From Candidatus Thorarchaeota archaeon (GTDB lineage Archaea > Asgardarchaeota > Heimdallarchaeia > Hodarchaeales > Hodarchaeaceae), in the NCBI GenBank assembly GCA_048882505.1, contig JBHLRO010000002.1, forward strand, positions 90,001-122,000: a stretch of DNA of 32,000 nucleotides, given 5' to 3'. Shown here one piece after another: positions 7,339 to 29,932 of this stretch (position 1 is the first letter of the stretch; the number at the start of each line of letters is the position of its first letter). The notes under the pieces are model-generated. The model saw nothing but the letters and a program-made list of their open reading frames with translations. It made no database searches and was not told the origin of the DNA. Made by a program: the position numbers and the translations under genes.

Positions 7339-7883
7339 CACTCTAAAACGCAATCAAAAGAATTCAGATCAAGAAGAGGGTTTTTTGCAGCTAATACGCC
7401 AAAGTGGTCACCTATACTCCCTGGATTTCACACAGGATTCCAGATGAAGAACCAATAGACAGAAGAAAATCATTAAAAACCCCTCTCGCTATTTTCCTGA
7501 TTCTATTGACCGATAGAGCCTTCATGCATACTTTCGAGGGTTTGCTTACTCTTATGGGGATCAAAAAAATATCTGCAAGGAATCAGGTCTCAGTGGAATG
7601 TGATATTTGATAGAATGCAGCGTCTTATTGCCGATCTAATGATCCAATAATTTCACTGTTATGGTCGCATTGCCGCAGATATAATCAGCTGGGTACGGGG
7701 ATCCCACACCAATCGCGAAACCTAGGCAGCGAAAGAAGTGATTGATTCTAAGAGCCTAACCAAAGAAATTAAAGAGCGAACACATATTATTTGGAAGTTA
7801 TACCGATATACTTATGAATCAAAGAATTCACAATAAGTTAACGTAAGTTTACATCACGGCCATTCCTCTCTCCGGTACCATCT

Positions 7884-8020
7884 CCTCCTCATCGTGAATT
7901 TAAGGTGTAGGACTTCCTTAGAGGGGCTTTCTAGGCATATTTTGCATATTCGGAGCAGAATATCAATGCAGTTCTTATGATAACAGAAAGTATCGGAGCT
8001 CCGTATCAAAGGTTTTTGCC
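7884..8020 (+). repeat. Copy A of a diverged non-coding block of about 140 bp, upstream of cdc6
   Basis: Aligns by hand to 9511-9651 with shared CCTCCTC, ATCGTGAA, AGAGG, CTTTCTAGGC, GCAGA, CTTAT and TTT-TGCC. 76/131 positions are identical over 7891-8020 vs 9521-9651 with one gap. Confidence 0.75.
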
Positions 8021-8069
8021 CACATGCCCAGATAAACAACTTCAAAATAGATTTTGGGGTCATTACCAT

Positions 8070-9296
8070 ATGAATGAAAGAAATAGCTATGATATCATCA
8101 AAGATGCATTATTCTCCTCATCGGTTTTCAAGGAAGGAGGAGAAAAAACGCTGCATCAATCGTATGTACCAGAAGATCTCAAGTTCAGAGAAGATGACAT
8201 ACGCAGAATCACCCAGAATTTTCGTCCCCTATTTTTATCGAATAAGGGAGGGGGTGAAGGATTTTCTACTAATATTTCGCTTGTGGGGCCAGCGGGGGTA
8301 GGTAAGACCGTAACCGCAAGATATACCATTGCACGGCTACGAGATATGGCCCAGAGGTACCATCTCAAACTGTACGAGAGCTATACCAATTGTTGGACAA
8401 CCCGTACGAAGACCAGCATCCTTCGTTCATTTCTCCGAGATCGATTTAACGTAGCTAGTCGAGGATTTTCAGATGAAGAATCTACGGATATTTTAACTCG
8501 CCGATTGAACTCCGAACAAGCCTACTTGATTTTGATTCTGGATGAGGTAAGTGTACTATCCCAAAAGGATGTAAGAGGGTTCATACATCTTCCCGAAGAG
8601 TTCGGCGCAGAACACCGGATCTCCTTGATTATGATTAGCCGACCTACAGAATGGAAAGTCACCCTATCCTCAGTGGTCTCTCAACGGATTGCGGATGTCA
8701 TCCAATTTGATCCCTACTCTCTTGATGAGACGAAACGCATCTTAGAATACCGGGCTCGCTTGGCCTTGAAAAGCTCCGCTATTTCAGATGAACTGATTGA
8801 TATGGTGGCCGAAATCTCTGATCAAACAAAGAACCTCCGGCATGGTATTGAGATTTTGTACCGATCGGGGAGAGCTGCGGATCAACAACGCCTGGACGAA
8901 ATCACTCCTGAATTGATTCGGAGGGCCAAGAATGATGTGTTTCCCGAGATGCGGGCTGACATACTTGAAGGGTTGAAAATCCATGAACTAATTGCCGCGC
9001 TTGGAATCGCTAGAAGGCTACATCACAAGGGAATCACCGCAACAACCATAGAGCATTCCCTGAAGAATTATCGCATAATCTGTGAGGAATGGAATGTCCG
9101 CCCGAATGGAGAGGCGGCGTTTCGGAAATATCTCAACACCTTAGAGTCCATCGGGATCCTTGGAAAGGTCACCAAGGGGGTAAAAGGTCGTAAGGGGGTT
9201 CGTGCCCGTCTTACCATTCATGATGTGCCTGCTGCGGTTCTGATTGAAAGACTTGAAGTGTTTTTAAATCAACGATTGAGCAATAGAAAAACTTAA
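8070..9296 (+). CDS. cdc6: Orc1/Cdc6 replication initiator (AAA+ and winged helix)
   Basis: Walker A GPAGVGKT, Walker B LILILDEV, YTNCW, FDPYSLDETKRILEYR and a C-terminal wHTH. ATG 8070 (MNERNSYDII) is preferred over ATG 7977, which starts inside repeat A. Confidence 0.93.
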   Translation: MNERNSYDIIKDALFSSSVFKEGGEKTLHQSYVPEDLKFREDDIRRITQNFRPLFLSNKGGGEGFSTNISLVGPAGVGKTVTARYTIARLRDMAQRYHLKLYESYTNCWTTRTKTSILRSFLRDRFNVASRGFSDEESTDILTRRLNSEQAYLILILDEVSVLSQKDVRGFIHLPEEFGAEHRISLIMISRPTEWKVTLSSVVSQRIADVIQFDPYSLDETKRILEYRARLALKSSAISDELIDMVAEISDQTKNLRHGIEILYRSGRAADQQRLDEITPELIRRAKNDVFPEMRADILEGLKIHELIAALGIARRLHHKGITATTIEHSLKNYRIICEEWNVRPNGEAAFRKYLNTLESIGILGKVTKGVKGRKGVRARLTIHDVPAAVLIERLEVFLNQRLSNRKT

Positions 9297-9510
9297 CTGA
9301 ATTAAAGATCCGTATTACACATTAAATATGAATGGACTTAGTCTCCTATCTCAAGGTGTGAATTGGTCTGTTCTAAAAGGGGAACGTAAAGTATTTTAGG
9401 GATTCCTAGGGATTTAAGTTTGCCCAAGATCCTGGGATACCTTTTAAGACGTTGATTGAAGTGGATTATTGTCCTAGATAGTAAAATAAGCGCATGTTAT
9501 ACTGGTTTCC

Positions 9511-9651
9511 CCTCCTCAAAATCGTGAAATTAATCATCCAAGACTCGCCAAGAGGATCTTTCTAGGCGTTTCTTGTACATCCGAGGCAGACTCTTGTCAC
9601 GCTACTTATTACGTGGGAAGAATTTGAAGTAGAGCGCTCAAGATTTCTGCC
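9511..9651 (+). repeat. Copy B of the diverged non-coding block, upstream of gins23
   Basis: See copy A. It ends 32 nt before the gins start, while copy A ends 49 nt before the cdc6 start. Confidence 0.75.
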
Positions 9652-9683
9652 TGGATTCCCTGTTACTGGAGACATAGTTAAAA

Positions 9684-10247
9684 TTGAGTTTTGAGACCCC
9701 ATCCAAAACCGAACTATTGAACGAGCTGGAACGCCTCAGGTTTGAATTATTAGAAACCAAAATCCCCGTTACCTTCCGTAGAGATTTTTCTGGATTTTCA
9801 TTTGAGGGAGTTTCAGTTCCTGCTGTCTCTAGAGGTAGCCAACTCGAAATACCGTACTTTATGGCTCAGATTTTGCTTGTCGATGAAGTGATTGAAGAAT
9901 TTACGCTCGAATTTCCAGATTCTCTTCAAGAACTAACAGGAGCAGTTAGAAACGAGGTACGTTCTGGTCAATTGCAGCCATTACCTCGTTTTTTTAACCT
10001 ATTATTGAAAGATTTGGTGCTAAATGATCAAGATCCAGATTCAGATTATGGCGAGGTTGACTACAAGCGTAAACGGGCCAAATATCTCCAGCTACTACAG
10101 GCCCGAGTAACAAAAATTGTTAAGATGGCCGATGGTATGCAACGGATTCCCCGCAAGCATAATATGACTGCTGAAGAACAAGTACTGTTTAACAAACTCC
10201 AGGAAATTGTTGGCGCTTATAAACACTTACTAACCAAAATCGAGTGA
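9684..10247 (+). CDS. gins23: GINS complex subunit, Gins23 (Psf2/Psf3-like, B-A domain order)
   Basis: N-terminal beta domain (IPVTFRRDFSGFSFEG...LEIPYFMAQIL), LQPLPRFF, RVTKIVKMA and MTAEEQVLFNKL. It is followed by an mcm start, the usual archaeal gins23-mcm synteny. Confidence 0.82.
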   Translation: MSFETPSKTELLNELERLRFELLETKIPVTFRRDFSGFSFEGVSVPAVSRGSQLEIPYFMAQILLVDEVIEEFTLEFPDSLQELTGAVRNEVRSGQLQPLPRFFNLLLKDLVLNDQDPDSDYGEVDYKRKRAKYLQLLQARVTKIVKMADGMQRIPRKHNMTAEEQVLFNKLQEIVGAYKHLLTKIE

Positions 10248-10273
10248 ATCAAAAGAAAAATGGAAGGAAATTT

Positions 10274-10300
10274 ATGGGTTATTCATTTGACATCAAGGGA
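10274..10300 (+). pseudogene. Orphaned 5' end of mcm (MGYSFDIKG)
   Basis: Starts 26 nt after the gins stop and matches the intact MCM N-terminus MGLSFDIKG (12533-12559) at 8/9 aa, after which homology ends abruptly. Confidence 0.8.
10286..10300 (+). repeat. 15-bp direct repeat TTTGACATCAAGGGA, left copy (attL-like)
   Basis: Exact match to 12545-12559. Flanking bases differ on both sides. Confidence 0.9.
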
Positions 10301-10314
10301 TACTCAGATTGCGT

Positions 10315-11142
10315 TTACGGTCGCGGAAATTCGGCCATTGGGCCTATGAGAAATGTGAGTTCAATATTCTCCTCATTGGTGTGCTGGATACGCAAGAGTG
10401 TGTTGTTTCCAAACTCCAGGGGCACACGATCACCAAACAAGGTGTCTGTGATGATGAGGGTTTTCTTGACAAACTCGATAGGATAGAAATTGCGAGCCTG
10501 GTGTACTCGCCCAGACGATGTGATAGGATGATGGATCGAGTAGAGAACCCTGTAATAGAGCTTATCTCGTATTTTGAAATGGATTTCCTCGGCATTGCCC
10601 TCAAACACAACAGGGTGTAGTGGGGCGTAATAACCAGGAGGGAATACCTCGCTAGGATCCTCAGGGAATGCTTCCGCAAACATGGTCATGGTCTGAATAA
10701 AGTCATTTTTTGCAATTTCAGCGAGATACGGTGGTGTTTGTATCTGATCAATTGGATCAGGGACAATCATGCCATCGGCGATGGTCACGGGGATTGGCGA
10801 GTCACCCACCCGCATTACTGCCTCCGTCTCGCTCAATTCAAACACCACAGTTTCCCCCTCCCTCCAAAATTGCACCGCTCGTACCAACTCCTCAAGGGAA
10901 AGTTGGAATTGAAGTATGCTCATCCCTGAAGTAAATGAGTAGAAAAACGAGGCAGGAAAACGAAGTATGATATCAATGATATTTCTTTCATCCTTCGTTG
11001 AAACTTGTAAGCCCTGGTCGGACACGGAGAAGATAACTTCGTCACCGGGGATGTTTTTCAGTATCTCTATGAAGGTGTGGAAGTCCTTCAACTTGTGAGG
11101 GGCGATTTCGAAGAGTTTTTCGGAAGGTTTTGTATCTCTCAC
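10315..11142 (-). CDS. Divergent PCNA-like DNA sliding clamp
   Basis: 275 aa. FIEILKNIPGDEVIFSVSDQGLQVSTKDERNIIDIILRFPASFFYSF and FYPIEFVKK...DRVPLEFGNNTLLRIQHT...LTFLIGP follow the PCNA N- and C-terminal patterns (e.g. EA.F...GL...AMD...V.M..L.L....F..Y and Y...YL......V.L.FG...PL.......L.F.LAP). Confidence 0.72.
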   Translation of the reverse strand: MRDTKPSEKLFEIAPHKLKDFHTFIEILKNIPGDEVIFSVSDQGLQVSTKDERNIIDIILRFPASFFYSFTSGMSILQFQLSLEELVRAVQFWREGETVVFELSETEAVMRVGDSPIPVTIADGMIVPDPIDQIQTPPYLAEIAKNDFIQTMTMFAEAFPEDPSEVFPPGYYAPLHPVVFEGNAEEIHFKIRDKLYYRVLYSIHHPITSSGRVHQARNFYPIEFVKKTLIITDTLFGDRVPLEFGNNTLLRIQHTNEENIELTFLIGPMAEFPRP

Positions 11143-11212
11143 CTTGAATTACTCCACTTGAGTATGAGTGAATTCTTCTCTTTTATATGACTTGTCGTAA
11201 TAGAATCTATCC

Positions 11213-11594
11213 TCAGTATTGAGAAACCACACAATGGCCATGTGTCATGCGGTACTCCGTAAGTTTTACATTTGTCCAATGACCATATTTCACCTCGGCC
11301 TGTGCTAAGACCTTGTCCGAGGGTAATCGGGTGGCCCTTGTATAATTTCGGCCACACGCCATAATTCTGTTTCCCTCGATGTTTGAATTTTGTTATTTTG
11401 GCCGTTTCAATTTTTACCCATTCTTGGAAGTCGTTTGGATAATTCCGCGCCAACCACAATAACTCGATCTCGGAAATAAACGGACAAAGCTTACAATTGG
11501 ATGGTAAGGGTATTTGATGGCCTAGGCTTCGAATGTAGCCTTGGCATGCCTTTCGATTCATCCCTTCGTCTATCAAGGGAAAATGGAAATACAT
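11213..11594 (-). pseudogene. 5'-truncated, frameshifted C-terminal part of a phage/plasmid-type PAPS-reductase-like (PP-loop/ANH) protein
   Basis: FPLIDEGMNRKACQGYIRSLGHQIPLPSNCKLCPF resembles this family. Removing one G at 11311-11312 gives ...TLGQVLAQAEVKYGHWTNVKLTEYRMTHGHCVVSQY* (stop at 11213-11215). There is no N-terminal PP-loop. Confidence 0.62.
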
Positions 11595-11598
11595 CCCT

Positions 11599-11991
11599 GA
11601 TCCCCCCGTCGTGGTTCTCCTTGCCCCTCAAAGCGGCGAAATTTTCAGTACCAGTCCCATTACAATTCGATGGCAAGCCTCCGATCCCGACCATGACGCT
11701 CTAAAATCTTCACTGTTTTACTGGGATGGGGAGGATTGGATATCCATCGATGCGGATCTTATTGTTTCGGAATACTTGTGGGATATCCAGGGTATTCCTA
11801 GCGGGGCGTACTATCGCATTAGAGTTGTGGTTAGTGATGGGTTCCTCATCGGGATTGACCAATCAAGCAGTCCCTTTTCAATAGAAAAATCCCGAGGGAC
11901 AGGGATAGAAGTGATATGGATTTTCCTCGGTATGCTCGTAACGACTATCTCAAGAACCCTAATTTCTAAAAAGTTCCGAGACCGCGGGTAA
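11599..11991 (+). pseudogene. C-terminal fragment of a cell-surface protein (Ig-like domain, hydrophobic anchor and basic tail)
   Basis: DPPVVVLLAPQSGE...ITIRWQASDPDHDAL...YYRIRVVVSDG followed by IEVIWIFLGMLVTTISRTLISKKFRDRG. No signal peptide is present and an in-frame stop lies at 11536-11538. Confidence 0.65.
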
Positions 11992-12312
11992 TTGGGGATA
12001 TCATTCCGATGAGAGGATAAACTTATTTTCCCTGTATCCCATTTTTTTCGGCAATATAGAACGTGAATTGATCGGCTCGAAGTTTTTTAAAACCAACGCT
12101 TACGAACAAAAGTAGGCTCGTAGGCTCCATTAACCCCTCCTACTTATTCTTGCATGTTAACCTCCTCTTCACCCTTTTCAGGTGAGCATTATTTTGTTCA
12201 AAGCCGCCTTTAATCTTAAAAAGGAGGAATCTGGTAAGTAACTGCCCGCTCCCAACCTAGTTAATATCTCTTCGTGGAGGCCTCGCGTATCATATCTGGC
12301 TCTACTGATCGA

Positions 12313-12468
12313 ACCCCGCTACAAAAAGAAATCATAGCCGAGATCATCCGACTTCGATCTGACTTACTCGAAACTAAAGTCCCTGTGAAATTTCTCAAAG
12401 AATTTTCGGTATTTATGTTTGCAGACATTAAAATTCACCTCGAACCCGATTTTGATAAAATCCTCTAG
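12313..12468 (+). pseudogene. Truncated second gins23 (N-terminal fragment)
   Basis: TPLQKEIIAEIIRLRSDLLETKVPVKFLKEFSVFMF vs residues 5-40 of intact Gins, TPSKTELLNELERLRFELLETKIPVTFRRDFSGFSF: 19/36 identical. It stops at 12466-12468, 64 nt before mcm. Confidence 0.82.
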
Positions 12469-12532
12469 CTGGTTCAAATGGATAAAAAGTAACCACAGAT
12501 ACTACTACTACCAAAGAAAAGGTGTTAGACCC

Positions 12533-14614
12533 ATGGGATTAAGCTTTGACATCAAGGGAAGGTTTGAAACATTCATTACTGAATTCACAGATCGTGAGGG
12601 TCATCTATACTACCATGAACGAATTGGGGAAATGGAAAGAAAAAGTCAGAAAAGCCTATTGATTTCCTATGATGACCTACTTCATCACGATCCCAAGCTG
12701 GCCGAAGAAATGTTGATAAATCCCGAGGTCTGCCTGTTGGTCGCCTCGAGCGTCTTAGAAGAGTTCTTGAATCAAATCAGTCCAATGTATGTACAAAAGA
12801 CTGAACAATTACATGTACGGATCACTGATCTCACAGATAAGGTTAATCTGCGTGCGCTCAAAACGGAACATCTCGGGAGACTTACCTGCTTCGAGGGTAT
12901 CGTGATTGGTGTTACCGAGGCCAAACCCCTCTTGATTCGCGGGGTTTTTCGATGTGCAGCCTGCGGAACGGACAATCAGATCGCGGAGTTTCCTGAAGGG
13001 ATTTATATCCCTCCTTATCGATGTAAAGAGGATCACTGTCAAAAAACAAATTCATTGCACCTACAAATCGAAAAATCCACCTTTATAGATTGGCAGAAGG
13101 TATCGATACAAGAACGACCGGAAGAACTACCCCCTGGCCAACTACCCCAGAGTATTAGTATACATATCCTCGATGATCTTGTGGATATGGCCCGCCCAGG
13201 GGATCGAGTAGAGGTGGTAGGTATCCTCAAGGCCCGGGCATCACGCCTATTAAAACGGGGCCAATTGTCCACTTACAACAAGTTTTTCCAGGGAGTAACC
13301 ATTATCAAAGAAACCGCAGAGTACGTCGATGTGGATGTTTCAGAAGAAGAAGAAAGAGAGATTATCGATCTGTCTAAATCACCCCATATCGTTGAAAAGA
13401 TCCGAAACTCGTTAGCTCCCTCGATCTATGGCCACGATGTCGTTAAGGAAGCAATCGCCTCGTTATTGTTTGGTGGGTCTGAAAAAACCACACCCGATGG
13501 GATAAAACTTCGTGGCGAAACTAACATCCTTTTAATAGGCGATCCTGGAGTTGGAAAGAGTCAGTTACTCAAATTTATAGCTAAATTGGCTCCCAGGGCG
13601 TTATATACGACTGGTAAAGGATCTACCGCCGCAGGACTGACCGCGGCTGTGATACGCGACCAAGACACAGGGGAAATTACATTGGAGGCGGGAGCCTTGG
13701 TATTAGCTGATCGTGGCATTGCCATGGTCGATGAATTCGATAAAATGCGTACAGATGACCGAGTTGCGATCCATGAAGCCATGGAACAACATTCCATTTC
13801 AATAGCCAAGGCAGGCATCGTAGCTACATTAAATGCAAGGACAGCCATCTTGGCGGCGGCCAACCCCCGTCGAGGTCGGTGGAATCCATATAAACCGACC
13901 GCTGATAATCTGAATTTACCCCCCACCATTCTATCACGGTTTGATCTCATTTTTGTGATGGAGGATAAGCCAGATCTCAAGGAAGACCGTGATAAGGCCA
14001 CACACATTCTTAACTTGCATAAATCGAAAATCCTCTCTAAAGAGCCTCCAGTACAGCAATCTCTTCTCCGGAAGTATATTGCGTATGCACGACGTGAAAT
14101 CAAGCCAACGCTTTCCGACGAGGCTCAAGAGCGGCTGCTGGAGTATTACATGACGCTCCGGAAAGAAAGTGAGCAAGTAGATGAAAAAGGAGTCCCTCCT
14201 ATCGCAATTACTCCCCGACAGCTCGAAGCGCTAGTTAGATTGTCCGAAGCTCGTGCAAAAATGCGTCTAAGTGATGTAGTTTCGTATGATGATGCGGCAG
14301 GAGCGGTAAACCTTATGAGGGTCTCCTTAGATAAGTTAGCTCGTGATACAGAAACTGGGAAACTCGATATCGATAGATATGCCTCAGATACCGATGCCCG
14401 CTCTCGACGCAATCTCGACCGTATTGAGGCACTAATTGATCGAAAAGTGGAGGAAGCCAAAACCAAAGATGCGGAACCTGCCGCTATCAAGGATATCTTG
14501 GATCAAGCTTTCGAGGAGGGTATGGATCGGGCCCAGGTGAGAAAAGTGATTGACGAGCTGATACGGCGAGGTCATTTGTTCGAACCTCGCCCGGGACACA
14601 TCGACAAGCCTTGA
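12533..14614 (+). CDS. mcm: MCM replicative helicase (693 aa)
   Basis: Zn finger CAAC...CKEDHC, Walker A GDPGVGKSQ, VDEFDKM, arginine finger SRFDL, ITPRQLEAL and a C-terminal wHTH. ATG 12533 is supported by the homologous start at 10274. Confidence 0.97.
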   Translation: MGLSFDIKGRFETFITEFTDREGHLYYHERIGEMERKSQKSLLISYDDLLHHDPKLAEEMLINPEVCLLVASSVLEEFLNQISPMYVQKTEQLHVRITDLTDKVNLRALKTEHLGRLTCFEGIVIGVTEAKPLLIRGVFRCAACGTDNQIAEFPEGIYIPPYRCKEDHCQKTNSLHLQIEKSTFIDWQKVSIQERPEELPPGQLPQSISIHILDDLVDMARPGDRVEVVGILKARASRLLKRGQLSTYNKFFQGVTIIKETAEYVDVDVSEEEEREIIDLSKSPHIVEKIRNSLAPSIYGHDVVKEAIASLLFGGSEKTTPDGIKLRGETNILLIGDPGVGKSQLLKFIAKLAPRALYTTGKGSTAAGLTAAVIRDQDTGEITLEAGALVLADRGIAMVDEFDKMRTDDRVAIHEAMEQHSISIAKAGIVATLNARTAILAAANPRRGRWNPYKPTADNLNLPPTILSRFDLIFVMEDKPDLKEDRDKATHILNLHKSKILSKEPPVQQSLLRKYIAYARREIKPTLSDEAQERLLEYYMTLRKESEQVDEKGVPPIAITPRQLEALVRLSEARAKMRLSDVVSYDDAAGAVNLMRVSLDKLARDTETGKLDIDRYASDTDARSRRNLDRIEALIDRKVEEAKTKDAEPAAIKDILDQAFEEGMDRAQVRKVIDELIRRGHLFEPRPGHIDKP
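12545..12559 (+). repeat. 15-bp direct repeat TTTGACATCAAGGGA, right copy (attR-like), codons 5-9 of mcm
   Basis: Exact match to 10286-10300. Confidence 0.9.
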
Positions 14615-14681
14615 GTATCGATTATCATATAGTGGGGGCAGTATTGAAGGATTTCATTCATCTGGAATTGGTAGTTCTCCG

Positions 14682-15806
14682 TTACGCCTCAAACAAAGTT
14701 CTTGGAGTATTTGTAAGGACTTCTGGGCTGTTCTCACCTATTACCACTGTGTCTTCAATCCGTACTCCCCACGATCCTTTGTAGATTCCACAATTTCCGA
14801 TTGCTACTGAAATATTTTTCTCTAGCGGGGGGGGAGCTTTTTCTCCATGGAAGAAGGCATGACCAGGTGGTAAAGGAGCTTCTTCGAAATTTATTCCTAT
14901 TCCATGAATTGGAGGCCCAAAAATATTCTTTCCATATCCAGCATCACGAATCGTACCATGAAGCGTGTCTTCAAGTTCAATCATGCCGATTCCTTTCACC
15001 GCTTTCGCAATCGTTGCTTCTAGAGCATCTAAATACACACTATAAGCTTTTTTCTGCTCACTAGACACATGATCAACAGCAACCATTCGACAAACATCTG
15101 AAGAATAATTTTCTACAATCGGATGAAGATCTATCACCACCAAGTCTCCTTTTTGAATTCTTCGATTTGTAGGAATTCCGTGAGCAATGCCTGTACGGGA
15201 TCCACAGGCGACATATGACCGCCAAAATCCTTCGGCCCCCTCTTGTCTCATTGCATATTCCCCTTCTGCTGCGATCTGACTCTCAGTTAAACCTATTTTT
15301 ACAGCTTCTATTGCAGCCTTTAAACCAACATCAGCGACTTTTGCTGCGCTTCTTAGCAAGGCAATTTCTTTTGGTTCCTTTATCAGACGTAATTGCGATA
15401 AAATATTTGTACAATCCTGAACTGTAACGTTTTCAGGCTTCGCATGTGGGTGAGTCATCATTCCCATCATCGATTTCGTTAAAAAGGTATATTCTAATCC
15501 CATGACCCCGGATTCTATTTTAAATTGCTTGAAATACTCCGCGATCGAATGAATCATCCCTACTTCGTCTTCAAAGCCCGTGATATGATCAAATCGTGCT
15601 AATTGCGTGACTTCTTCAATATCGGTCTTGGGCGTGCCGATAGCAACTTGGTTATCTTTAGAAATCATTACATACGCACAAAGGCGCCCATCTCCAGTGA
15701 GATAAAGCATATTCGATGGTTTGGTGAGTAACAAGACATTAATCCCCTCTTTTGCCATTTGTTGGCTACACCTTTTTACTCGTTTCTCATAGGTAATTTT
15801 ATTCAT
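14682..15806 (-). CDS. M24-family (Xaa-Pro peptidase/creatinase fold) protein
   Basis: Creatinase-like N-domain, RLIKEPKEI, D-x10-D (DLHPIVENYSSD), HGIG and GVRIEDT. Confidence 0.88.
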   Translation of the reverse strand: MNKITYEKRVKRCSQQMAKEGINVLLLTKPSNMLYLTGDGRLCAYVMISKDNQVAIGTPKTDIEEVTQLARFDHITGFEDEVGMIHSIAEYFKQFKIESGVMGLEYTFLTKSMMGMMTHPHAKPENVTVQDCTNILSQLRLIKEPKEIALLRSAAKVADVGLKAAIEAVKIGLTESQIAAEGEYAMRQEGAEGFWRSYVACGSRTGIAHGIPTNRRIQKGDLVVIDLHPIVENYSSDVCRMVAVDHVSSEQKKAYSVYLDALEATIAKAVKGIGMIELEDTLHGTIRDAGYGKNIFGPPIHGIGINFEEAPLPPGHAFFHGEKAPPPLEKNISVAIGNCGIYKGSWGVRIEDTVVIGENSPEVLTNTPRTLFEA

Positions 15807-16103: not shown

Positions 16104-17618
16104 ATGATAGTTTTTTCAACTAATGGTTTTAGATTCTTTTACGGCGCAAAAAGGACTTCTATGGAGACGGGTCGAGTGCAGACTTCGTTCGAATCAGTAC
16201 AAAGGGAAACGGCCTCATTTTTTTCAACCATTACCTATCCCAGTGTTCTGAAAGCAGCTTTTTCTTTACAAGATATCCAAAATCGGACCCAAAACACAAA
16301 GTTTCAGCTTTTGTGGAATTTGGTTCAAAAGAAAGGGATTAATTGCTTTCAACTCGTTGGGTCACAAAAAAAAAGGCGTTGGCAAATCTTTTTTATAGAC
16401 TTAGAGACCCCTATACTATTTATCCCTACAACACATGATTCATTGGCCGTTGAAAAATTTTTATCGTTTTCGAATATCCTGAAAACAATCAAATCGAACT
16501 TACTCCAAAAATATAGTCAAGAATCAGAGGCAATGATTGTTCAGGTCAAAAATGAAGAAAAAGAAACTAGCGATTCCCCCTTTACAACATATAAGGTGGA
16601 GGATCAGGAGAGACCCGAGAAATCTGGTAGGAACTCAATAATGAGGGAGGGTCAGCAATCCTTACACACTTATCTAGGAAAAAAAGAAGAAGATCTAACT
16701 AGACTTGAAGAGGAAGAGAGAATTGATTTGAGGAAGGGGAGAAGGCGGAATCCATTTGGACAGTTTAATCCGAAAAATAGGTTAAACACACTGACTGGGA
16801 GAGAATGGATACGTTTTTCCAAATCCTGGCGCATTGAAAGGCCTCCCCCACGGAATAAGAATGAAATATTACATCCCGCGAAATTTCCAGAGACAATGGT
16901 ACGCAGTTATATCACGTTTTTTACTAAGAAAGGGCAACTTGTTCTAGACCCCTTCCTTGGGAGCGGCAGCATGCTCGTCACCGCAAAACAATGTAATCGA
17001 AATGGGGTGGGGATTGAGTTATCACAATTCTATGCTGATATTGCACAAACCCGTGTGGATGAAATCGGAGATCTTCCCTACTCCCCCCTTTACCAAACTG
17101 AGAAAAAGGGATTCTGGCGCGTTATAAAGGGGGATGCCAGGGATTTACCTGGTCTATGGAAGAAGCATAAGTTACCGCAATTGGATTTTTGCATCACATC
17201 ACCTCCCTATTGGAACCAGCTGGCTCGGAGTACTATTCGCCAGAAGGCACGAAAAAAACAGGGATTGGATACCAGATATAGCGAAAATGATCCTAACGAT
17301 TTAGGGAATATCCGCGACTATAGGCAATTTCTGAAGACCCAACAGACAATTTTCGGGCACGTGTACACCCTCCTACGAAACAAAGGATATCTAGTGGTGG
17401 TCACGAACAACGTGTTTACGCGGGGGCGGTTATTTCCCCTGGCTTACGATACTGCCACAAGTCTTGTAAGTGATGGAAACCATCCATGGGTTCTCAAGGA
17501 CGAAAAACTCTGGCTGCAAGACGATAAAGCATTATTGGCCTTAGGGGTAAACAATGCGTGGGTTGGAAATCGATGTCACCAATATTGTCTTATTTTCCGA
17601 AAAGAAGAAGATAACTGA
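16104..17618 (+). CDS. Orphan amino-type (probably N4-cytosine) DNA methyltransferase with an N-terminal extension of about 180 aa; true start uncertain (16104, 16161 or 16641)
   Basis: HPAKFP, VLDPFLGSGS (motif I) ahead of TSPPYW (motif IV). No restriction endonuclease gene is adjacent. Confidence 0.85.
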   Translation: MIVFSTNGFRFFYGAKRTSMETGRVQTSFESVQRETASFFSTITYPSVLKAAFSLQDIQNRTQNTKFQLLWNLVQKKGINCFQLVGSQKKRRWQIFFIDLETPILFIPTTHDSLAVEKFLSFSNILKTIKSNLLQKYSQESEAMIVQVKNEEKETSDSPFTTYKVEDQERPEKSGRNSIMREGQQSLHTYLGKKEEDLTRLEEEERIDLRKGRRRNPFGQFNPKNRLNTLTGREWIRFSKSWRIERPPPRNKNEILHPAKFPETMVRSYITFFTKKGQLVLDPFLGSGSMLVTAKQCNRNGVGIELSQFYADIAQTRVDEIGDLPYSPLYQTEKKGFWRVIKGDARDLPGLWKKHKLPQLDFCITSPPYWNQLARSTIRQKARKKQGLDTRYSENDPNDLGNIRDYRQFLKTQQTIFGHVYTLLRNKGYLVVVTNNVFTRGRLFPLAYDTATSLVSDGNHPWVLKDEKLWLQDDKALLALGVNNAWVGNRCHQYCLIFRKEEDN

Positions 17619-25798: not shown

Positions 25799-28036
25799 AT
25801 GCTAGTTAAGTCTCTGGCTATTGATGAAGATGCCAAAAAGTTCATCATCGAGCAGGATGGAATAAAGGAATTATATCCTCCTCAGAGTAAAGCTATAGGT
25901 CAGGGTCTGTTAGATAACCAGAACCTTGTGATTGCCATACCTACTGCCTCGGGAAAGACCCTGCTGGCAGAACTAGCGGCCCTCAAACATGTTCTAGAAA
26001 AAACGGGCAAAGTACTATATTTATGCCCACTGCGTGCATTGGCGGCCGAGAAATTCCATGCTATGAAACGTTTTGAAAACCTTGGATTACGGGTTGGCAT
26101 TACCTCTGGGGACTATGATTCTAAAGATCGGTACCTTCCCCGTTATGACATTATTGTCTCTACGAACGAGAAAATTGACGCACTCCTGCGACACGGAACA
26201 TCCTGGATTTTAAACCAGGTTAGTTTAGTGATTATTGACGAATTTCATCTCCTGGATGATCAACACCGTGGCCCCACTCTTGAAACTCTTTTGGCTCGCT
26301 TAAGATACGAAAACTCACAGGCCCAGCTATTGGCACTAAGCGCTACCGTAGGAAATGCCGATGAATTAGCGGAATGGCTTGATGCTAAGCTCGTCATAAG
26401 TGATTGGAGACCAGTTCCACTCAAGGAAGGTGTTTATTATGATAACTATATTACATATGCCGATTTTTCTACTCGCGAAGTGCCTTTTCGGAGAAAAGAT
26501 CAACTAATCAACATTGCTCTCGATTCAGTTCATAACGACGACCAGGTTCTTGTTTTCGCATCTTCGCGTCGTTCAGCCGAGTCAGCAGCCGAACGGATTG
26601 GCAAATTGATAGTTCCTTTGGTGACACCTCGGGATCTGAAACACTTGAGCGAAGTTGCGGGGGAGGCGGCGATAAATCTGACGGATCCGCTCTCAACCAA
26701 GCTAAGTGAAACGCTCAAGCGGGGTGTAACTTTTCATCATGCTGGGCTCAATTCCCAGCAGCGTGAACTGGTGGAGCAGGCTTTCAAGAAAGGGTATATC
26801 AAGATCCTCTGTTCCACTCCTACGCTGGCCTCCGGAATAAATCTACCGGCCAAGCGGGTGGTGATCGCCAGTGTGTATCGATATTCTGTCGAAGAAGGAT
26901 CTCATCCTATCAAGACCCTAGAGTATAAACAGATGTGCGGAAGAGCTGGCCGACCACAGTTTGACACAGAGGGGGAATCTCTTCTCCTAGCTAAAAAGGA
27001 GGGGACAGCTGGATGGTTATTGGATCGATATATTCGAAGTGGCCCCGAAACAATCTATTCCAAACTTGCAGCCAAACCTGCACTGCGGCGTAATATCCTA
27101 GGATTAATTGCATCAAAAGTCGTCGATAACCTCCCAGAATTAGGTGAATTCTTCGAAAAAACCTTCTATGGATTCCAGTTCGAAGTTAGTCTTCTTGTAG
27201 ATAAAATCAGGGATGTGGTTGACAATCTAATTGTTTGGGAGATGATAGAACCATTGGATGCAAATCAATCCTTGAGGGCTACCGTATTTGGCCGAAGAAT
27301 CAGTCAACTGTACCTGGATCCCGATACGGCAGCCACAATCGCAGCTGGCCTCGCCCTGACTACTAAGAAGGCCGCCCACCGCCTTCATGTCATCGCTCTT
27401 TTAGATCTCATCGTAGGTACCCCTGATATGCTTGAACTTTCATTTCGGAAGCAGGACTGGAAAAAAACTGAGGATCGTTTGTTAAAGCTTGAATCCAAGC
27501 TTGTTCTGGAAGTCCCCAATTCTTTAGATATCGACTATGAAATTCGACTTCGGGATTTCAAAACTGTTCTCTTCCTCTGGGATTGGATTCGAGAAGTTTC
27601 GATCGAGCGGCTTTTGCTCCGATATGGGATTGGATCGGGTGATGTGAGACGGATAATCGACACAGCTACCTGGCTTATAACAGCTATGAGTGAGATTGCC
27701 AAGTTAAAGGTTCATCAAGACAAAAACTACGCTCATCTTGCCAAACGTGCCAATGAACTCAGTGAACGTGTAACATATGGGATCAAACGGGATGCCGTCA
27801 GTCTGACCCGTATCCGCGGGATTGGCCGTAAGCGTGCTCGTGTTCTACTTGAACATGGGATTAAAGATGTAATCAAACTCGGATCTATGAATGTTACCGA
27901 GCTAACTAGAATTCCTGGGTTTGGAAAGGAACTAGCTAAGAGTGTTTTGGACGCTGCAAAGTCGTATGACATTCCAAAGGACGAGGAATCTCGGACTGAA
28001 TTTGTTAATGGCGATATTAGTGATTATTTATCTTAA
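25799..28036 (+). CDS. hel308: Hel308/Hjm (Ski2-like SF2) DNA helicase
   Basis: PTASGKT, IDEFH, LSAT, FHHAGL, TPTLASGINLPA, QMCGRAGRP and a C-terminal HhH (IRGIGRKRA). Confidence 0.95.
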   Translation: MLVKSLAIDEDAKKFIIEQDGIKELYPPQSKAIGQGLLDNQNLVIAIPTASGKTLLAELAALKHVLEKTGKVLYLCPLRALAAEKFHAMKRFENLGLRVGITSGDYDSKDRYLPRYDIIVSTNEKIDALLRHGTSWILNQVSLVIIDEFHLLDDQHRGPTLETLLARLRYENSQAQLLALSATVGNADELAEWLDAKLVISDWRPVPLKEGVYYDNYITYADFSTREVPFRRKDQLINIALDSVHNDDQVLVFASSRRSAESAAERIGKLIVPLVTPRDLKHLSEVAGEAAINLTDPLSTKLSETLKRGVTFHHAGLNSQQRELVEQAFKKGYIKILCSTPTLASGINLPAKRVVIASVYRYSVEEGSHPIKTLEYKQMCGRAGRPQFDTEGESLLLAKKEGTAGWLLDRYIRSGPETIYSKLAAKPALRRNILGLIASKVVDNLPELGEFFEKTFYGFQFEVSLLVDKIRDVVDNLIVWEMIEPLDANQSLRATVFGRRISQLYLDPDTAATIAAGLALTTKKAAHRLHVIALLDLIVGTPDMLELSFRKQDWKKTEDRLLKLESKLVLEVPNSLDIDYEIRLRDFKTVLFLWDWIREVSIERLLLRYGIGSGDVRRIIDTATWLITAMSEIAKLKVHQDKNYAHLAKRANELSERVTYGIKRDAVSLTRIRGIGRKRARVLLEHGIKDVIKLGSMNVTELTRIPGFGKELAKSVLDAAKSYDIPKDEESRTEFVNGDISDYLS
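27968..28036 (+). repeat. hel308 3' end, left copy of a 69-bp diverged direct repeat
   Basis: 58/69 nt identical to 29864-29932, with a 17-bp exact core AGGACGAGGAATCTCGG at 27978-27994. Confidence 0.92.
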
Positions 28037-28230
28037 AATGAAAGTATCATTGAGAATTAGGTAGTTGAGAAGATCTCTAAAGAATTCAGGTGAAGAATAT
28101 GAAGCCAAATTAGGAGGATAACAACTCCAATCTTCAAAAGTCGGATGGGTTATTCTACTAATCAGCGATATTGGGGAGGGATCATCTTTCTCTAATCTCT
28201 CACTAGTCTCGCATTTGTTGATCATTTGGA

Positions 28231-29709
28231 TTAGCTTAAAGAAAATAAGTTTATACTAGTGCTAATTCCGCTTTTAACAAATAATAACGGTAGAGATTCA
28301 TTTTTGGCAACATCAAGCAAAGTATTTAGACCCAAAATCACGATATAGTTGCTAGTACCATTTGTATTTGGTAATGCTGAATTGTTACCATGATAAATCC
28401 AAGTATACTTGTACTCAGCAACGCCCATCAGATATGGAAGTTGTGTTTGGAGAGTAAAAGTGGTAAAAATCGTAGAATTGGAGGGAACGTTGATTTGAAT
28501 AAATTCTGCAGTTGATTCTATTAATTCAGTCATATTTGGATCTGTGTACTCATATCTTTCTCCAACTACTCCAAATATTATCATATTACCAAATATAGTA
28601 CCTATCATCAGAAATAATAGCACTCGTCGATTATTAATAAGAAATAAAAATCCACCAAGAATTATTGAATAATTATAGAAGTACCTTGCTTGAACTGTCC
28701 AAATTACAATGAGAGAAGTATTAATTATTGACCAAGCTAACAAAACCATATGGATTGCTTTTATGGATCCTAAAACCGACTTCGAATCATCCCTTAATTG
28801 CGTGATAAAATAATACGATATACACAAAAAAACAAAGCCAATGAATGCTAAAGCATACCCAGCACTCAAAATAATCTTAATAATATTATTTCCTCCAAAT
28901 GGGTTAACGATAAGGCCTGTACCTGTAATTTGAGAGCTGGATACACTTTGGGCTACCATTGCAACTTGGGGTTCAGTGAATCCCACTATCATTAAGCGGG
29001 GCACATATAGAAGAAGGCCACCCATCACGTAAGACATAATATTTCTCAGTTGTGTCGTAACCAGTAACTTAGAGCTGTGATCTGGCTCAATTCGGACCTG
29101 ATGTGATATACCATACCCTAGAATAAATACTCCGATAGCTAAGGCGCATGAGATTACATCTTCTTTGCATAGATAACCAGCACCAATTGAAATCCCAGTT
29201 AACCATAACCAATACCATTTTTCGGGCGATAATGTCCATTTGTTTAACGTAATTAATGAAATAACAATAAATAATGCAGAAAAGGGCTCGAATAAATTCC
29301 AAGAACCAAGCATCAATGTTATTGGAGCAAATAAGTACATGGTTAACGCCCCCAATCCATAATCGCGACCGTGGAGACTTCTAATAAGAAGAAACCAAGC
29401 TAGTCCCCCAACGATTACAATGGGAATGGTACTTAATCTTAATATGCTAATATCTGTACCGAAGAATAATATAATGATGGCATAATACAGTATTGGAATG
29501 ATTCTACCTGCAAACCACTTGTTTTGATTACTATTGGTGATTAAATACTCCCCTTTATAAACCAGGGTCTTGGCTTGATATAAATATCCACCTTCATCAC
29601 TGATAAAACTCTTATGAAAGAAAAGAATCACATAAGAGATATATACAACGATTACGGCTGATAGGACCAAATACTCAAATCTGAGACGGGAATTCTTTAA
29701 TTGATGCAA
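28231..29709 (-). CDS. GT-C fold membrane glycosyltransferase (PMT_2/ArnT-like)
   Basis: Multiple hydrophobic segments, SDEGGY in the first external loop and LCKED. The region is visibly more AT-rich than the flanking genes. Confidence 0.72.
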   Translation of the reverse strand: MHQLKNSRLRFEYLVLSAVIVVYISYVILFFHKSFISDEGGYLYQAKTLVYKGEYLITNSNQNKWFAGRIIPILYYAIIILFFGTDISILRLSTIPIVIVGGLAWFLLIRSLHGRDYGLGALTMYLFAPITLMLGSWNLFEPFSALFIVISLITLNKWTLSPEKWYWLWLTGISIGAGYLCKEDVISCALAIGVFILGYGISHQVRIEPDHSSKLLVTTQLRNIMSYVMGGLLLYVPRLMIVGFTEPQVAMVAQSVSSSQITGTGLIVNPFGGNNIIKIILSAGYALAFIGFVFLCISYYFITQLRDDSKSVLGSIKAIHMVLLAWSIINTSLIVIWTVQARYFYNYSIILGGFLFLINNRRVLLFLMIGTIFGNMIIFGVVGERYEYTDPNMTELIESTAEFIQINVPSNSTIFTTFTLQTQLPYLMGVAEYKYTWIYHGNNSALPNTNGTSNYIVILGLNTLLDVAKNESLPLLFVKSGISTSINLFSLS

Positions 29710-29863
29710 TTATTATTTCCTCTTAAAGCGGAAGACATACATGGAAGATAGTTGCTATTGATATAATGATAGTTTAAATAATTCTTTTGATCCACCAGAT
29801 TCTATACAAATACACTTCTTTGATATATCTGCTCCACCCATTGAATGAAGGGACTCACTCCCA

Positions 29864-29932
29864 GACCTTCCAGAGGACGAGGAATCTCGGGCTGAGCTTG
29901 TTAATGGCGATGTTAGTGATTATCTTACGTGA
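29864..29932 (+). pseudogene. Orphaned second copy of the hel308 3' end (DLPEDEESRAELVNGDVSDYLT*)
   Basis: Codon-aligned with DIPKDEESRTEFVNGDISDYLS*, including the stop position; lies 60 nt before rpiA. Confidence 0.9.

Follow-up and report, generated by a model that had tools for sequence, protein, structure and literature searches.

A 2.26-kb insertion at a 15-bp repeat within the mcm gene of a Hodarchaeales-type Asgard archaeon

A gene cassette of 2.26 kb lies within the first codons of mcm, the gene for the essential replicative helicase, in an Asgard archaeon (Hodarchaeales-type), and provides mcm with a new start. The locus lies in a 32,000-nt stretch of DNA (the window), and the question it raises is how such a gene comes to begin within sequence that parts it from its operon partner, gins.

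The gins-mcm locus, its empty site and a second occupied lineage

The region opens with orc1/cdc6 (nt 7977–9296, plus strand; Pfam Cdc6_lid, AAA_22 and Cdc6_C), the native upstream neighbour, which shows 77–83% identity to the cdc6 genes located upstream of gins-mcm in 14 congeners. It is followed by gins-A (nt 9684–10247, plus strand), a native and intact gins23-like gene recognised by its synteny in the 14 congeners and by a match to NCBIfam Gins23 (E = 2e-11, 153/159 positions aligned, with a score under the equivalog cut-off); matches to Pfam PSF3_N and Sld5 are weak. A G016-type orthologue of gins-A (~93%) was found in sequencing run X2. Direct reading of the sequence then gives a displaced native mcm start (nt 10274–10300, plus strand), a stub of nine codons (MGYSFDIKG) from the ATG at nt 10274, after which the frame enters antisense cargo. 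The functional mcm (nt 12533–14614, plus strand; Pfam MCM_N, MCM_OB, MCM and MCM_lid; NCBIfam MCM, 841 bits) has its ATG at nt 12533 and starts MGLSFDIKG. Inteins occur in the mcm genes of many congeners, which shows this gene to be habitually targeted by selfish elements.

The two mcm starts share a 15-mer, TTTGACATCAAGGGA, of which a whole-genome search found just two copies in the 4.3-Mb assembly, a left (attL-like) copy at nt 10286–10300 and a right (attR-like) copy at nt 12545–12559, both on the plus strand. Their spacing is exactly 2,259 bp, and the insert separates gins23 from mcm. The insert proper, made up of cargo, spacer and replacement arm, occupies nt 10301–12544 (2,259 bp with one core copy) and ends in a leader for mcm with its four opening codons, MGLS (nt 12469–12544, plus strand, read directly from the sequence), in frame with the full-length gene. 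The first 12 nt of the functional mcm are therefore insert-derived, and the gene is native after the 15-bp core. The intact gins23, the nine-codon stub, the 2259-bp spacing and the full mcm with its altered start had been described in a sequence-only reading of this DNA, and each is present. A near-palindrome singled out in that reading (TTGA-CA-TCAA) comprises 4 + 4 nt only and is given no weight here. The exact 15-mer occurs at the homologous codons in none of the 14 congeners, and agreement over the 12 nt on its left is limited to 8 positions, so the identity of the repeats exceeds what conservation would lead one to expect.

In all 14 congeners examined, cdc6, gins and mcm are contiguous, with 10–40 nt between gins and mcm; the empty site to be sought in relatives is thus present in each of them. 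The precise empty site was recovered in a contig from an unrelated metagenome of a different study (X4; depth 3, shorter side 57 nt), which joins nt 10285 to nt 12545. It omits 2,259 nt, 15 nt at the joint can be assigned to either side, and the contig equals an exact deletion between the 15-mer repeats.

The same mcm site is occupied by a near-identical copy in a different lineage, represented by a single Logan contig of 1,770 nt from another sample (SRR30758834_11345, run X2) that spans both junctions. Over 185 nt of mcm it shows no difference from G016, and its gins-A end is ~84% identical to the window. Its flanks are G016-type and differ from the window at 23/271 positions, whereas the inserts differ at only 10/1,470 (99.3% identical; Fisher p = 2e-12); the near-identity of the two lineages includes the leader and MGLS stretch. 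The switch in divergence falls within both 15-mers: differences begin at nt 10285 and 10297 on the left and at nt 12553 on the right, the ninth position of the right core copy. In the X2 haplotype the mcm stub is shorter by another 4 nt, and the Ig-like gene described below is deleted, with the adjoining spacer (nt 11992–12273) kept with one difference. From the core onward, the mcm of the window is 92–96% identical to G016 (96/100 over the first 100 nt) and is free of any foreign tract, which places the exchange point at the core. One unit, ending at the repeats, is thus found in differing host backgrounds, which suggests that the cassette moved recently as a discrete unit. The proposal of an element sitting at a 15-bp site within mcm and carrying a replacement start is borne out by the empty site, in the 14 congeners and the X4 contig, and by this second lineage; its description as a relic is not obvious, since the element appears to have moved recently.

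Contents of the insert

The left part of the insert is taken up by an intact cargo gene on the minus strand (nt 10315–11142) that probably specifies a divergent PCNA-like sliding clamp. A profile built from its two copies matches archaeal PCNA chains in the PDB over their full length (E = 5e-5), and the two-domain PCNA fold extends over the whole protein. The ESM Atlas model (pTM 0.76) gives TM-scores of 0.74–0.81 against archaeal PCNA clusters, and the nearest clusters by sequence features are mostly viral PCNA. NCBIfam sliding-clamp matches (E = 1e-8 to 1e-12) lie under their cut-offs, while a paralogue clears that of Pfam PCNA_N (23.7 bits, cut-off 20.3). Apart from the two copies that this genome carries, two large searches covering 15 billion proteins returned only the identical gene of X2 (Logan) and one weak match, and the sequence is essentially an orphan. 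Clamps of this type are carried by viruses of Asgard and other archaea (Opia, Nidhogg, Skoll; PMC11529989). The clamp of the mcm insert likewise places a PCNA fold on an Asgard mobile element, but differs in its essentially orphan sequence and in being carried by a 2-kb cassette rather than a virus genome.

Next is the C-terminal part of a frameshifted, PAPS-reductase-like pseudogene (nt 11213–11594, minus strand), identified by alignment to a paralogue of 260 aa, itself a match to phrog_424, on G000:C56; the frame of the pseudogene is broken into ORFs at nt 11139–11594 and 11213–11362. A gene on the plus strand (nt 11611–11991) encodes an Ig-like protein with a C-terminal membrane helix, which gives a weak match to Pfam Big_7 and resembles repeats of a 1,763-aa surface protein on contig C20. 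The insert cargo looks virus-derived. A second, diverged copy of the PCNA/Ig cargo splits ribK in the same way (dS 0.55–0.71), and comparison with it gives dN/dS values of 0.28 for the PCNA-like gene and 0.32 for the Ig-like gene. Both genes are thus still under purifying selection, and the PAPS-reductase-like gene is dead. The non-coding spacer that follows (nt 11992–12273) shows no notable ORF and no Rfam match.

The spacer leads to gins-B (nt 12274–12468, plus strand), recognised by alignment to gins proteins of the genus as what is left of a second gins, of foreign origin, after an internal deletion. It derives from a once complete gene, because both the N-terminal ~55 residues and the C-terminal FDKIL are kept. 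It had been described as truncated, and is indeed incomplete, but the loss is internal. The identity between the two gins copies, given earlier as 19/36 aa, is 19/44 on re-alignment; gins-B shows 11–20/44 to the congeners and is equally far from each. As for a replication module of its own, also proposed for the element, the insert holds the divergent clamp and the decayed gins but nothing further.

Mode of entry and alternative explanations

These features are probably best explained by a discrete integrative cassette of small size (2,259 bp) that lacks a recombinase of its own and entered by one reciprocal recombination at the 15-bp site in mcm. A single reciprocal exchange at this sequence, which covers codons 5–9 of mcm, would suffice, and the simplest source would be a circular form. 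The right end of the cassette would be a foreign copy of the target locus, once comprising a complete gins followed by the leader and codons 1–4 of mcm. Once integrated, the cassette would supply the sequence from which mcm is read, leaving the native nine-codon start stranded behind gins; with the gins-mcm operon split, transcription of mcm would have to start within the insert, presumably from a new promoter there. A circular intermediate is likewise presumed.

No ORF of the mcm insert contains a recombinase domain, and the insert holds no mobility genes of any kind. The assembly as a whole carries one XerA-type tyrosine recombinase, situated among housekeeping genes, and no serine recombinase; neither an integrase of a resident element nor an autonomous parent element with a cognate integrase was found in it (94.5% complete, with repeated sequence at contig ends). 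The backward joint of an excised circle (attP) is absent from the contigs, which do not show rare forms, and pattern scans of two public collections gave no match to such a junction. The catalyst was, slightly more likely than not, a recombinase acting in trans, either the host XerA or the integrase of a helper element. Host short-homology recombination at the sole identical stretch is a somewhat less probable candidate. The mcm and ribK cassettes bear on the integration reading in two ways. In each, the arm plus core has the 3' end of the Ig gene on one side and that of the PCNA gene on the other, which is what one circular layout would give. Their cores and target genes are unrelated, however, which is awkward for a single sequence-specific recombinase. 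It also means that the element, thought earlier to target mcm, is integrated there but has cargo not tied to that gene. At ribK, the displaced fragment is 98.3% G016-like and the functional arm ~84% (arms dN/dS 0.04), and the site is empty in G016. At this and the roadblock site the foreign tract seems to extend 30–90 nt beyond the end of the duplication, as would be more readily expected from homologous repair than from a precise exchange by a site-specific enzyme.

Ordinary homologous recombination, with a relative already carrying the cassette as donor and crossovers in the flanking gins and mcm, is an unlikely alternative. Host recombination is the simplest route for an element without a recombinase, and the overrunning tracts at ribK and roadblock are in its favour. 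At mcm, the near-identity ends within the 15-mers on both sides, so that no donor flank was co-transferred, and the gene is G016-like directly after the core; the donor flank sequence expected of such an import, which had been raised as a possibility in the sequence-only reading, is not seen. The first origin of the duplicated structure would also be left unexplained. Similarly unlikely is homing, in which the 5' region of the native mcm is cleaved by an endonuclease (encoded elsewhere or since lost), and the cassette, with a diverged, cleavage-resistant start, is copied in during repair. A sister cassette in this genome (C2:361746–363524) does carry a LAGLIDADG endonuclease, which is intact and has several HTH domains; the divergence of the replacement gene end in this cassette is highest right at the junction, and the G016 site is empty; the mcm inteins of many congeners point the same way. 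The mcm insert, unlike a free-standing homing-endonuclease cassette, contains no endonuclease gene or nuclease domain, its junction is an exact 15-nt identity where a diverged, resistant site is expected, and the flank co-conversion normal for a repair-based route is not seen at mcm.

The presence of two gins copies and two mcm starts in direct orientation would agree with an ancient duplication in tandem, in which the two gins-mcm copies decayed reciprocally and cargo was later inserted between them. This explanation, offered earlier as the alternative to integration, fits poorly and is very improbable: no such duplication is seen in any of the 14 congeners, gins-B is as far from gins-A as from the gins of other species, the same cargo has a different foreign arm in ribK, flanks that differ by 4–16% enclose inserts of 99.3% identity in the two lineages, and a pseudogene-rich insert cannot be 6–12 times less diverged than the essential genes around it. 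An assembly artefact, in which two strain variants were fused via the short repeat, is the least probable of all; the genome is metagenome-assembled and the G016 contig C52 stops exactly at the right copy of the 15-mer, but the insert is found independently in Logan contigs of three samples, the 1,770-nt contig crosses both junctions, and the Logan index samples words of 31 letters, longer than the 15-nt repeat. Near-identical inserts in diverged flanks, with the switch inside both 15-mers, count against duplication, misassembly and import by flanking homology alike. A transposon or casposon was considered and rejected, as the only terminal inverted repeat is a weak 14-nt match and the insert has no transposase domain; a target-site duplication would also leave the adjacent foreign gins and mcm arm unexplained.

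Comparison with known elements

Integrative elements that supply a replacement gene end include prophage e14 and phage 21, both at icd of E. coli. The mcm cassette resembles gene-targeting elements of this kind in its short flanking repeats, the supply of the displaced end, the intact target and the empty site in relatives. Known elements encode their own integrase, by definition, and mostly span 5–100 kb, whereas the cassette is 2.26 kb and has no recombinase. In archaea, integrated elements occupy 3'-distal gene regions (Krupovic et al. 2019, PMC6563490); those of Thaumarchaeota have direct repeats of 8–25 bp, and all 14 thaumarchaeal cases in protein-coding genes lie at 3' ends (PMC6563490). 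With the mcm cassette, in contrast, it is the 5' end of an essential replication gene that is exchanged, presumably together with its promoter.

Integrase-less, cis-mobilizable elements are known from streptococci (CIMEs). Another very small example is mini-Yucahu-i of Atabeyarchaeia (2,644 bp), observed as a circle in an Asgard archaeon, which sits within a parent plasmid that encodes an integrase and shares an 11-bp motif with it (PMC11529989). The mcm cassette shares with both the very small size, att-like repeats at the ends and lack of an integrase, but no parent or integrase was found for it, and the two related cassettes use unrelated sites. Insertions with long target duplication (Nobusato et al. 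2000; Furuta et al. 2010, PMC2853133) also lack a mobility gene, duplicate the target, often over a translation start or stop, and have an empty site in a relative. Their repeats are longer than 30 bp and near-identical (e.g., 44–47 of 46–47 bp), whereas the homologous blocks at mcm are the gins N-terminus plus 27 nt of mcm, with ~46% protein identity and 15 nt exact, one allele being foreign and diverged. The mcm cassette differs further in being a unit whose limits coincide exactly with the repeat and which is found in two host backgrounds.

At least three more cassettes of ~2 kb with duplicated gene ends are present in this genome, one of them with a LAGLIDADG endonuclease, and the nearest relative is without them. 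It may be, tentatively, that Hodarchaeales-type Asgard archaea host a family of ~2-kb circularizable cassettes that lack a recombinase, use a foreign 5' or 3' end of a host gene as attachment arm and are moved by host XerA or short-homology recombination rather than by an element integrase. If so, such cassettes could explain much of the strain-specific gene gain in these archaea and could rewire the promoters of core genes, that of the replicative helicase included.

The interrupted gins‒mcm locus and its cargo

The orc1/cdc6 gene (nt 7977–9296) is followed by a gins23-like gene (gins-A, nt 9684–10247) and then by a displaced mcm start, or stub (MGYSFDIKG, ATG at nt 10274), whose frame runs into unrelated sequence. 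The full mcm gene lies further on (nt 12533–14614) and starts MGLSFDIKG. The 15-mer TTTGACATCAAGGGA occurs at nt 10286–10300 and 12545–12559, a spacing of 2,259 bp, and has only these two copies in the whole 4.3-Mb assembly. The split gins23‒mcm operon, the stub, the 15-bp direct repeat and the replacement start described in the sequence-only reading are all confirmed. The 12 nt to the left of each 15-mer copy agree at just 8 of 12 positions, and the exact 15-mer is absent from the homologous mcm codons of 14 same-genus genomes (congeners), so its exact identity goes beyond what conservation alone would give.

The insert carries a 275-aa ORF (nt 10315–11142, minus strand), a frameshifted C-terminal fragment of a PAPS-reductase-like gene (nt 11213–11594, minus strand), a gene for an Ig-like protein of 126 aa with a C-terminal membrane helix (nt 11611–11991), 282 nt of non-coding DNA, a 64-codon gins remnant (gins-B, nt 12274–12468) and, at its right end before the right core, an mcm leader with the first four codons. 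Similarity was not found between the non-coding spacer and the cdc6‒gins intergenic region, so there is no sign of an insert-carried origin; Rfam returned zero RNA families for nt 9200–12700. Two similar blocks of ~80 nt, in direct orientation (nt 7882–7959 and 9512–9590), lie ~20–90 nt upstream of the cdc6 and gins-A starts and may represent a promoter or origin-recognition element common to both genes. Upstream of gins-B or mcm, the insert is without such a block. A gene for an N6/N4 DNA methyltransferase is found at nt 16,104–17,618.

The 275-aa protein is predicted, from profile and model comparisons, to be a PCNA-type clamp. A profile of the two PCNA-like copies in the assembly aligned over its full length with archaeal PCNA chains (E 5e-5), the ESM Atlas model (pTM 0.76) matched archaeal PCNA clusters at TM 0.74–0.81, and the paralogue scores above the Pfam PCNA_N cut-off. 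An AlphaFold2 model from a two-sequence alignment was discarded (mean pLDDT 32), and the fold evidence comes from the Atlas model and the PDB profile search. The protein is a near-orphan: two large searches returned the two copies of this assembly, an identical gene on a Logan contig and one weak match, and a copy was not found in 21 congeners, the locus being unassembled in G016, the closest species in the genome library. By sequence features, the clusters nearest to the protein are for the most part viral PCNA ones, the PAPS-reductase-like fragment belongs to phrog_424, a family typical of viruses, with virus-like neighbourhoods, and PCNA-like genes occur in Asgard viruses (PMC11529989); on these grounds the cargo looks virus-derived. 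The neighbourhoods of the closest PAPS-reductase-like relatives look viral and did not reveal a parent element. More PAPS-reductase-like fragments and Ig-gene starts are present in the assembly, mostly at contig ends (C56:278–1060, C64:288–410, C79:1–116 and C2:216384–216524), and mark a repeated, decaying element family that breaks assembly.

Empty sites and apparent recent movement of the insert

The empty gins‒mcm site sought in relatives was found in all 14 congeners with an assembled locus, where cdc6, gins and mcm are contiguous and the gins‒mcm gap is 10–40 nt. Public contigs on nt 7900–14,700 show that the region is covered by the source run, and the insert also by two more samples from the source study. 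A contig from X4, a public run of a different study, joins nt 10285 to 12545 and skips exactly 2,259 nt, with 15 nt at the joint assignable to either side. This contig is thin (depth 3; shorter side 57 nt) and represents the predicted empty site with an MGYS-type start, so the precise deletion between the repeats proposed from the sequence exists as a natural allele. A circle junction was not among these public contigs, which by their nature do not reveal one. Exact-pattern scans for the four possible junctions gave no matches in the metagenome_contigs and genome_contigs collections, from which records of this genome may be missing, and a word-based search for the empty-site allele with the first 120 MCM residues recovered nothing. 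The G016 assembly ends exactly at the 15-mer and again mid-cdc6, which fits a polymorphic region. The gap between its contig ends (C119 and C52) spans mid-cdc6 to the first 15-mer base, so that gins and any insert are absent from the G016 record. In many congeners (L008–L020) the match to mcm is broken into two or three segments within open frames of 830–1,756 aa, a pattern that looks like inteins; the mcm described here (693 aa) and that of G016 appear to be intein-free.

The native and foreign copies can be told apart. Gins-A lies beside cdc6, as in all relatives, and a G016-type orthologue (~93%) is present in X2, another public run. The X4 empty-site contig has the left-hand, A-type sequence, and mcm from the core onward agrees with G016 in 96 of the first 100 nt and contains no foreign tract. 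The cdc6 neighbourhood, the A-type empty site and the G016-like mcm indicate that gins-A, the stub and the post-core mcm are native, and so the insert brought gins-B and the MGLS start. The alignment of gins-B with the gins proteins of the genus covers their first ~55 residues and the C-terminal FDKIL motif, and gins-B is equally distant from gins-A (19/44) and the congeners (11–20/44). By these alignments, it was formerly a complete gins of another lineage and later lost its middle. It is not simply truncated, as first described, since both ends are kept. A donor search for gins-B gave one spurious planctomycete match only.

The PCNA-like protein was found on one further contig in the protein database, Logan contig SRR30758834_11345 (1,770 nt), which represents the X2 haplotype. 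Its mcm part equals G016 exactly over 185 nt, and its gins-A end shows 16 differences from the window over 101 positions, among them a deletion of 4 nt within the stub. Compared with the window, the insert shows 10 differences in 1,470 nt and the flanks 23 in 271 (Fisher p = 2e-12); against the right flank alone (7/170) the value is p = 9e-4. At the left boundary, differences continue up to nt 10285, one falls within the core (nt 10297) and the next only at nt 10495, while at the right boundary the last insert difference is at nt 12480 and the next at nt 12553, core position 9. A pseudogene-filled stretch cannot evolve 6–12 times slower than mcm, and the arrival of the insert in one of the two lineages, or in both, must therefore be recent. 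Had two inserts of long residence recombined with each other, the crossovers should be scattered at random within the insert and not sit at its two ends, and transfer via flanking homology should have brought donor flank sequence, none of which is present. The positions of the differences place the exchange points inside the 15-mers on both sides, and the insert apparently moved recently as a discrete unit bounded by them. Integration at the 15-bp site with a replacement mcm start, as first proposed, is supported by both the empty sites and this second lineage. The X2-type haplotype lacks nt 11218–11991, with GGT in place, a loss that deprives it of the Ig-like gene as well as some of the pseudogene. 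The PCNA-like gene is intact, indicating that the cassette is decaying while this gene is kept.

Related cassettes elsewhere in the genome

A sister PCNA cassette (G000:C11:117274–119485; L021 9275–11486) occupies the 5' part of a ribK-like gene, which specifies a CTP-dependent riboflavin kinase with an HTH domain. At the end of this contig, the same three cargo genes separate the complete ribK-like gene from a second, truncated ribK N-terminus, within which the contig stops. The PAPS-like remnant is shorter still (a C-terminal stub), the homology boundary is an identical 14-mer, and the site is empty in G016. The truncated ribK fragment is 98.3% identical to G016 and the N-terminal part of the functional gene only ~84%, the switch occurring near the 14-mer. 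The two arms (copies of the target gene end) give a dN/dS of 0.04 and a dS of 1.1 against each other, so both evolved as working genes in separate lineages. Between the mcm-site and ribK-site cargo, dS is 0.55–0.71 and dN/dS is 0.28 (PCNA-like) and 0.32 (Ig-like); by this measure the two copies are old relatives, neither being a recent copy of the other. The junction between the truncated pseudogene and the Ig gene is common to both cassettes, hence the 2-kb form is older than their split. In both, arm and core are enclosed by the 3' ends of the Ig gene and the PCNA gene, in opposite orientation, a placement that a single circular layout with an exchangeable arm would give. The PCNA gene end has a third context in X4.

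Self-comparison of the assembly revealed numerous gene ends present as short, diverged direct repeats, in several cases 1.6–2.9 kb apart. Three were checked against G016 (a helicase 3' end in the window, an aldehyde dehydrogenase 3' end and a roadblock 5' end), and in each case G016 lacks the insert and has one arm copy. The cargo is varied and includes a glycosyltransferase-like membrane protein, a beta-helix protein, an NhaA antiporter and an intact LAGLIDADG endonuclease. The helicase cassette (nt 27,968–29,923; cargo nt 28,028–29,868) follows a Hel308-type helicase gene (nt 25,799–28,036), whose last 20 codons recur at nt 29,864–29,923 with 90% identity, and carries a 492-aa membrane protein (nt 28,231–29,709, minus strand) with a weak PMT_2 match below the cut-off. 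G016 is without nt 28,028–29,868 and has a single helicase arm; both arm copies in the window are too diverged for the native one to be assigned by this comparison. The aldehyde dehydrogenase cassette (G000:C2:361639–363646; L058 2140–4147), with its duplicated 3' end, encodes a 550-aa protein with several HTH domains and the LAGLIDADG endonuclease domain. Divergence of the functional gene end peaks right at the junction, the displaced copy is G016-like and the G016 site is empty; the cassette looks like a free-standing homing endonuclease carrying a resistant replacement gene end. At the roadblock cassette (G000:C15:78500–80651; L062), the promoter, leader and first 8 codons are duplicated around ~1.9 kb of cargo with a 358-aa ORF that matches no family. 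Of the two copies, the displaced one is 95% G016-like and the functional one foreign; the site is empty in G016. Additional short, diverged direct repeats, 1.6–2.9 kb apart and bracketing single cargo genes, occur at C3:32144/33720, C6:96793/98827, C6:129970/132099, C17:82035/84201 and C37:2594/5449, with a beta-helix protein, an NhaA antiporter, a TPR protein and an FG-GAP propeller protein among the cargo.

Mechanism and comparison with known systems

Recombinase, nuclease and transposase domains are all absent from the insert ORFs, and the insert has no terminal inverted repeats. The assembly (94.5% complete) encodes no serine recombinase; its single tyrosine recombinase satisfies the archaeal XerA model and lies among housekeeping genes. 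The data require that the chromosome and a unit with one core copy, most simply a circle, recombined reciprocally at the core. A trans-acting recombinase is one candidate catalyst and is consistent with the sharp boundaries; the other, short-homology host recombination, is consistent with the missing integrases and the unrelated cores of the sister cassettes. At ribK and roadblock the foreign tract apparently extends 30–90 nt past the duplication, which hints at repair-type events at those loci.

Elements that integrate into protein-coding genes and bring a replacement end are known, but these carry an integrase, and all 14 thaumarchaeal integrations in protein-coding genes use 3' ends (PMC6563490). 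Integrase-less mini-elements exist in Asgard archaea, inside an integrase-encoding parent element (PMC11529989), and recombinase-free inserts that have duplicated gene ends and an unknown mechanism are described as 'Insertion with long target duplication' (PMC2853133). The mcm insert merges traits of all three, namely a replacement end, a small integrase-less unit and duplicated gene ends, but differs from the thaumarchaeal cases in using the 5' end of an essential helicase gene, and additionally provides direct evidence for a discrete, recently mobile unit. The aloposons of Heimdallarchaeum, with giant genes and tRNA-site insertion, are unrelated.

Both mcm and gins belong to the core replisome of the group of archaea nearest to eukaryotes, and an element that is apparently mobile at present here interrupts their operon. 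For its start and control sequences, the helicase is presumably now dependent on the insert, beside a virus-type PCNA clamp. The locus gives a clean example of integration that is site-precise although the element encodes no recombinase, and as empty, occupied and partly deleted alleles are all found in public runs, which enzyme moves such cassettes is a testable question. The 15-bp site might act as a docking site for genetics in these organisms. The mechanism, if general, would help to account for gene gain in Asgard genomes.
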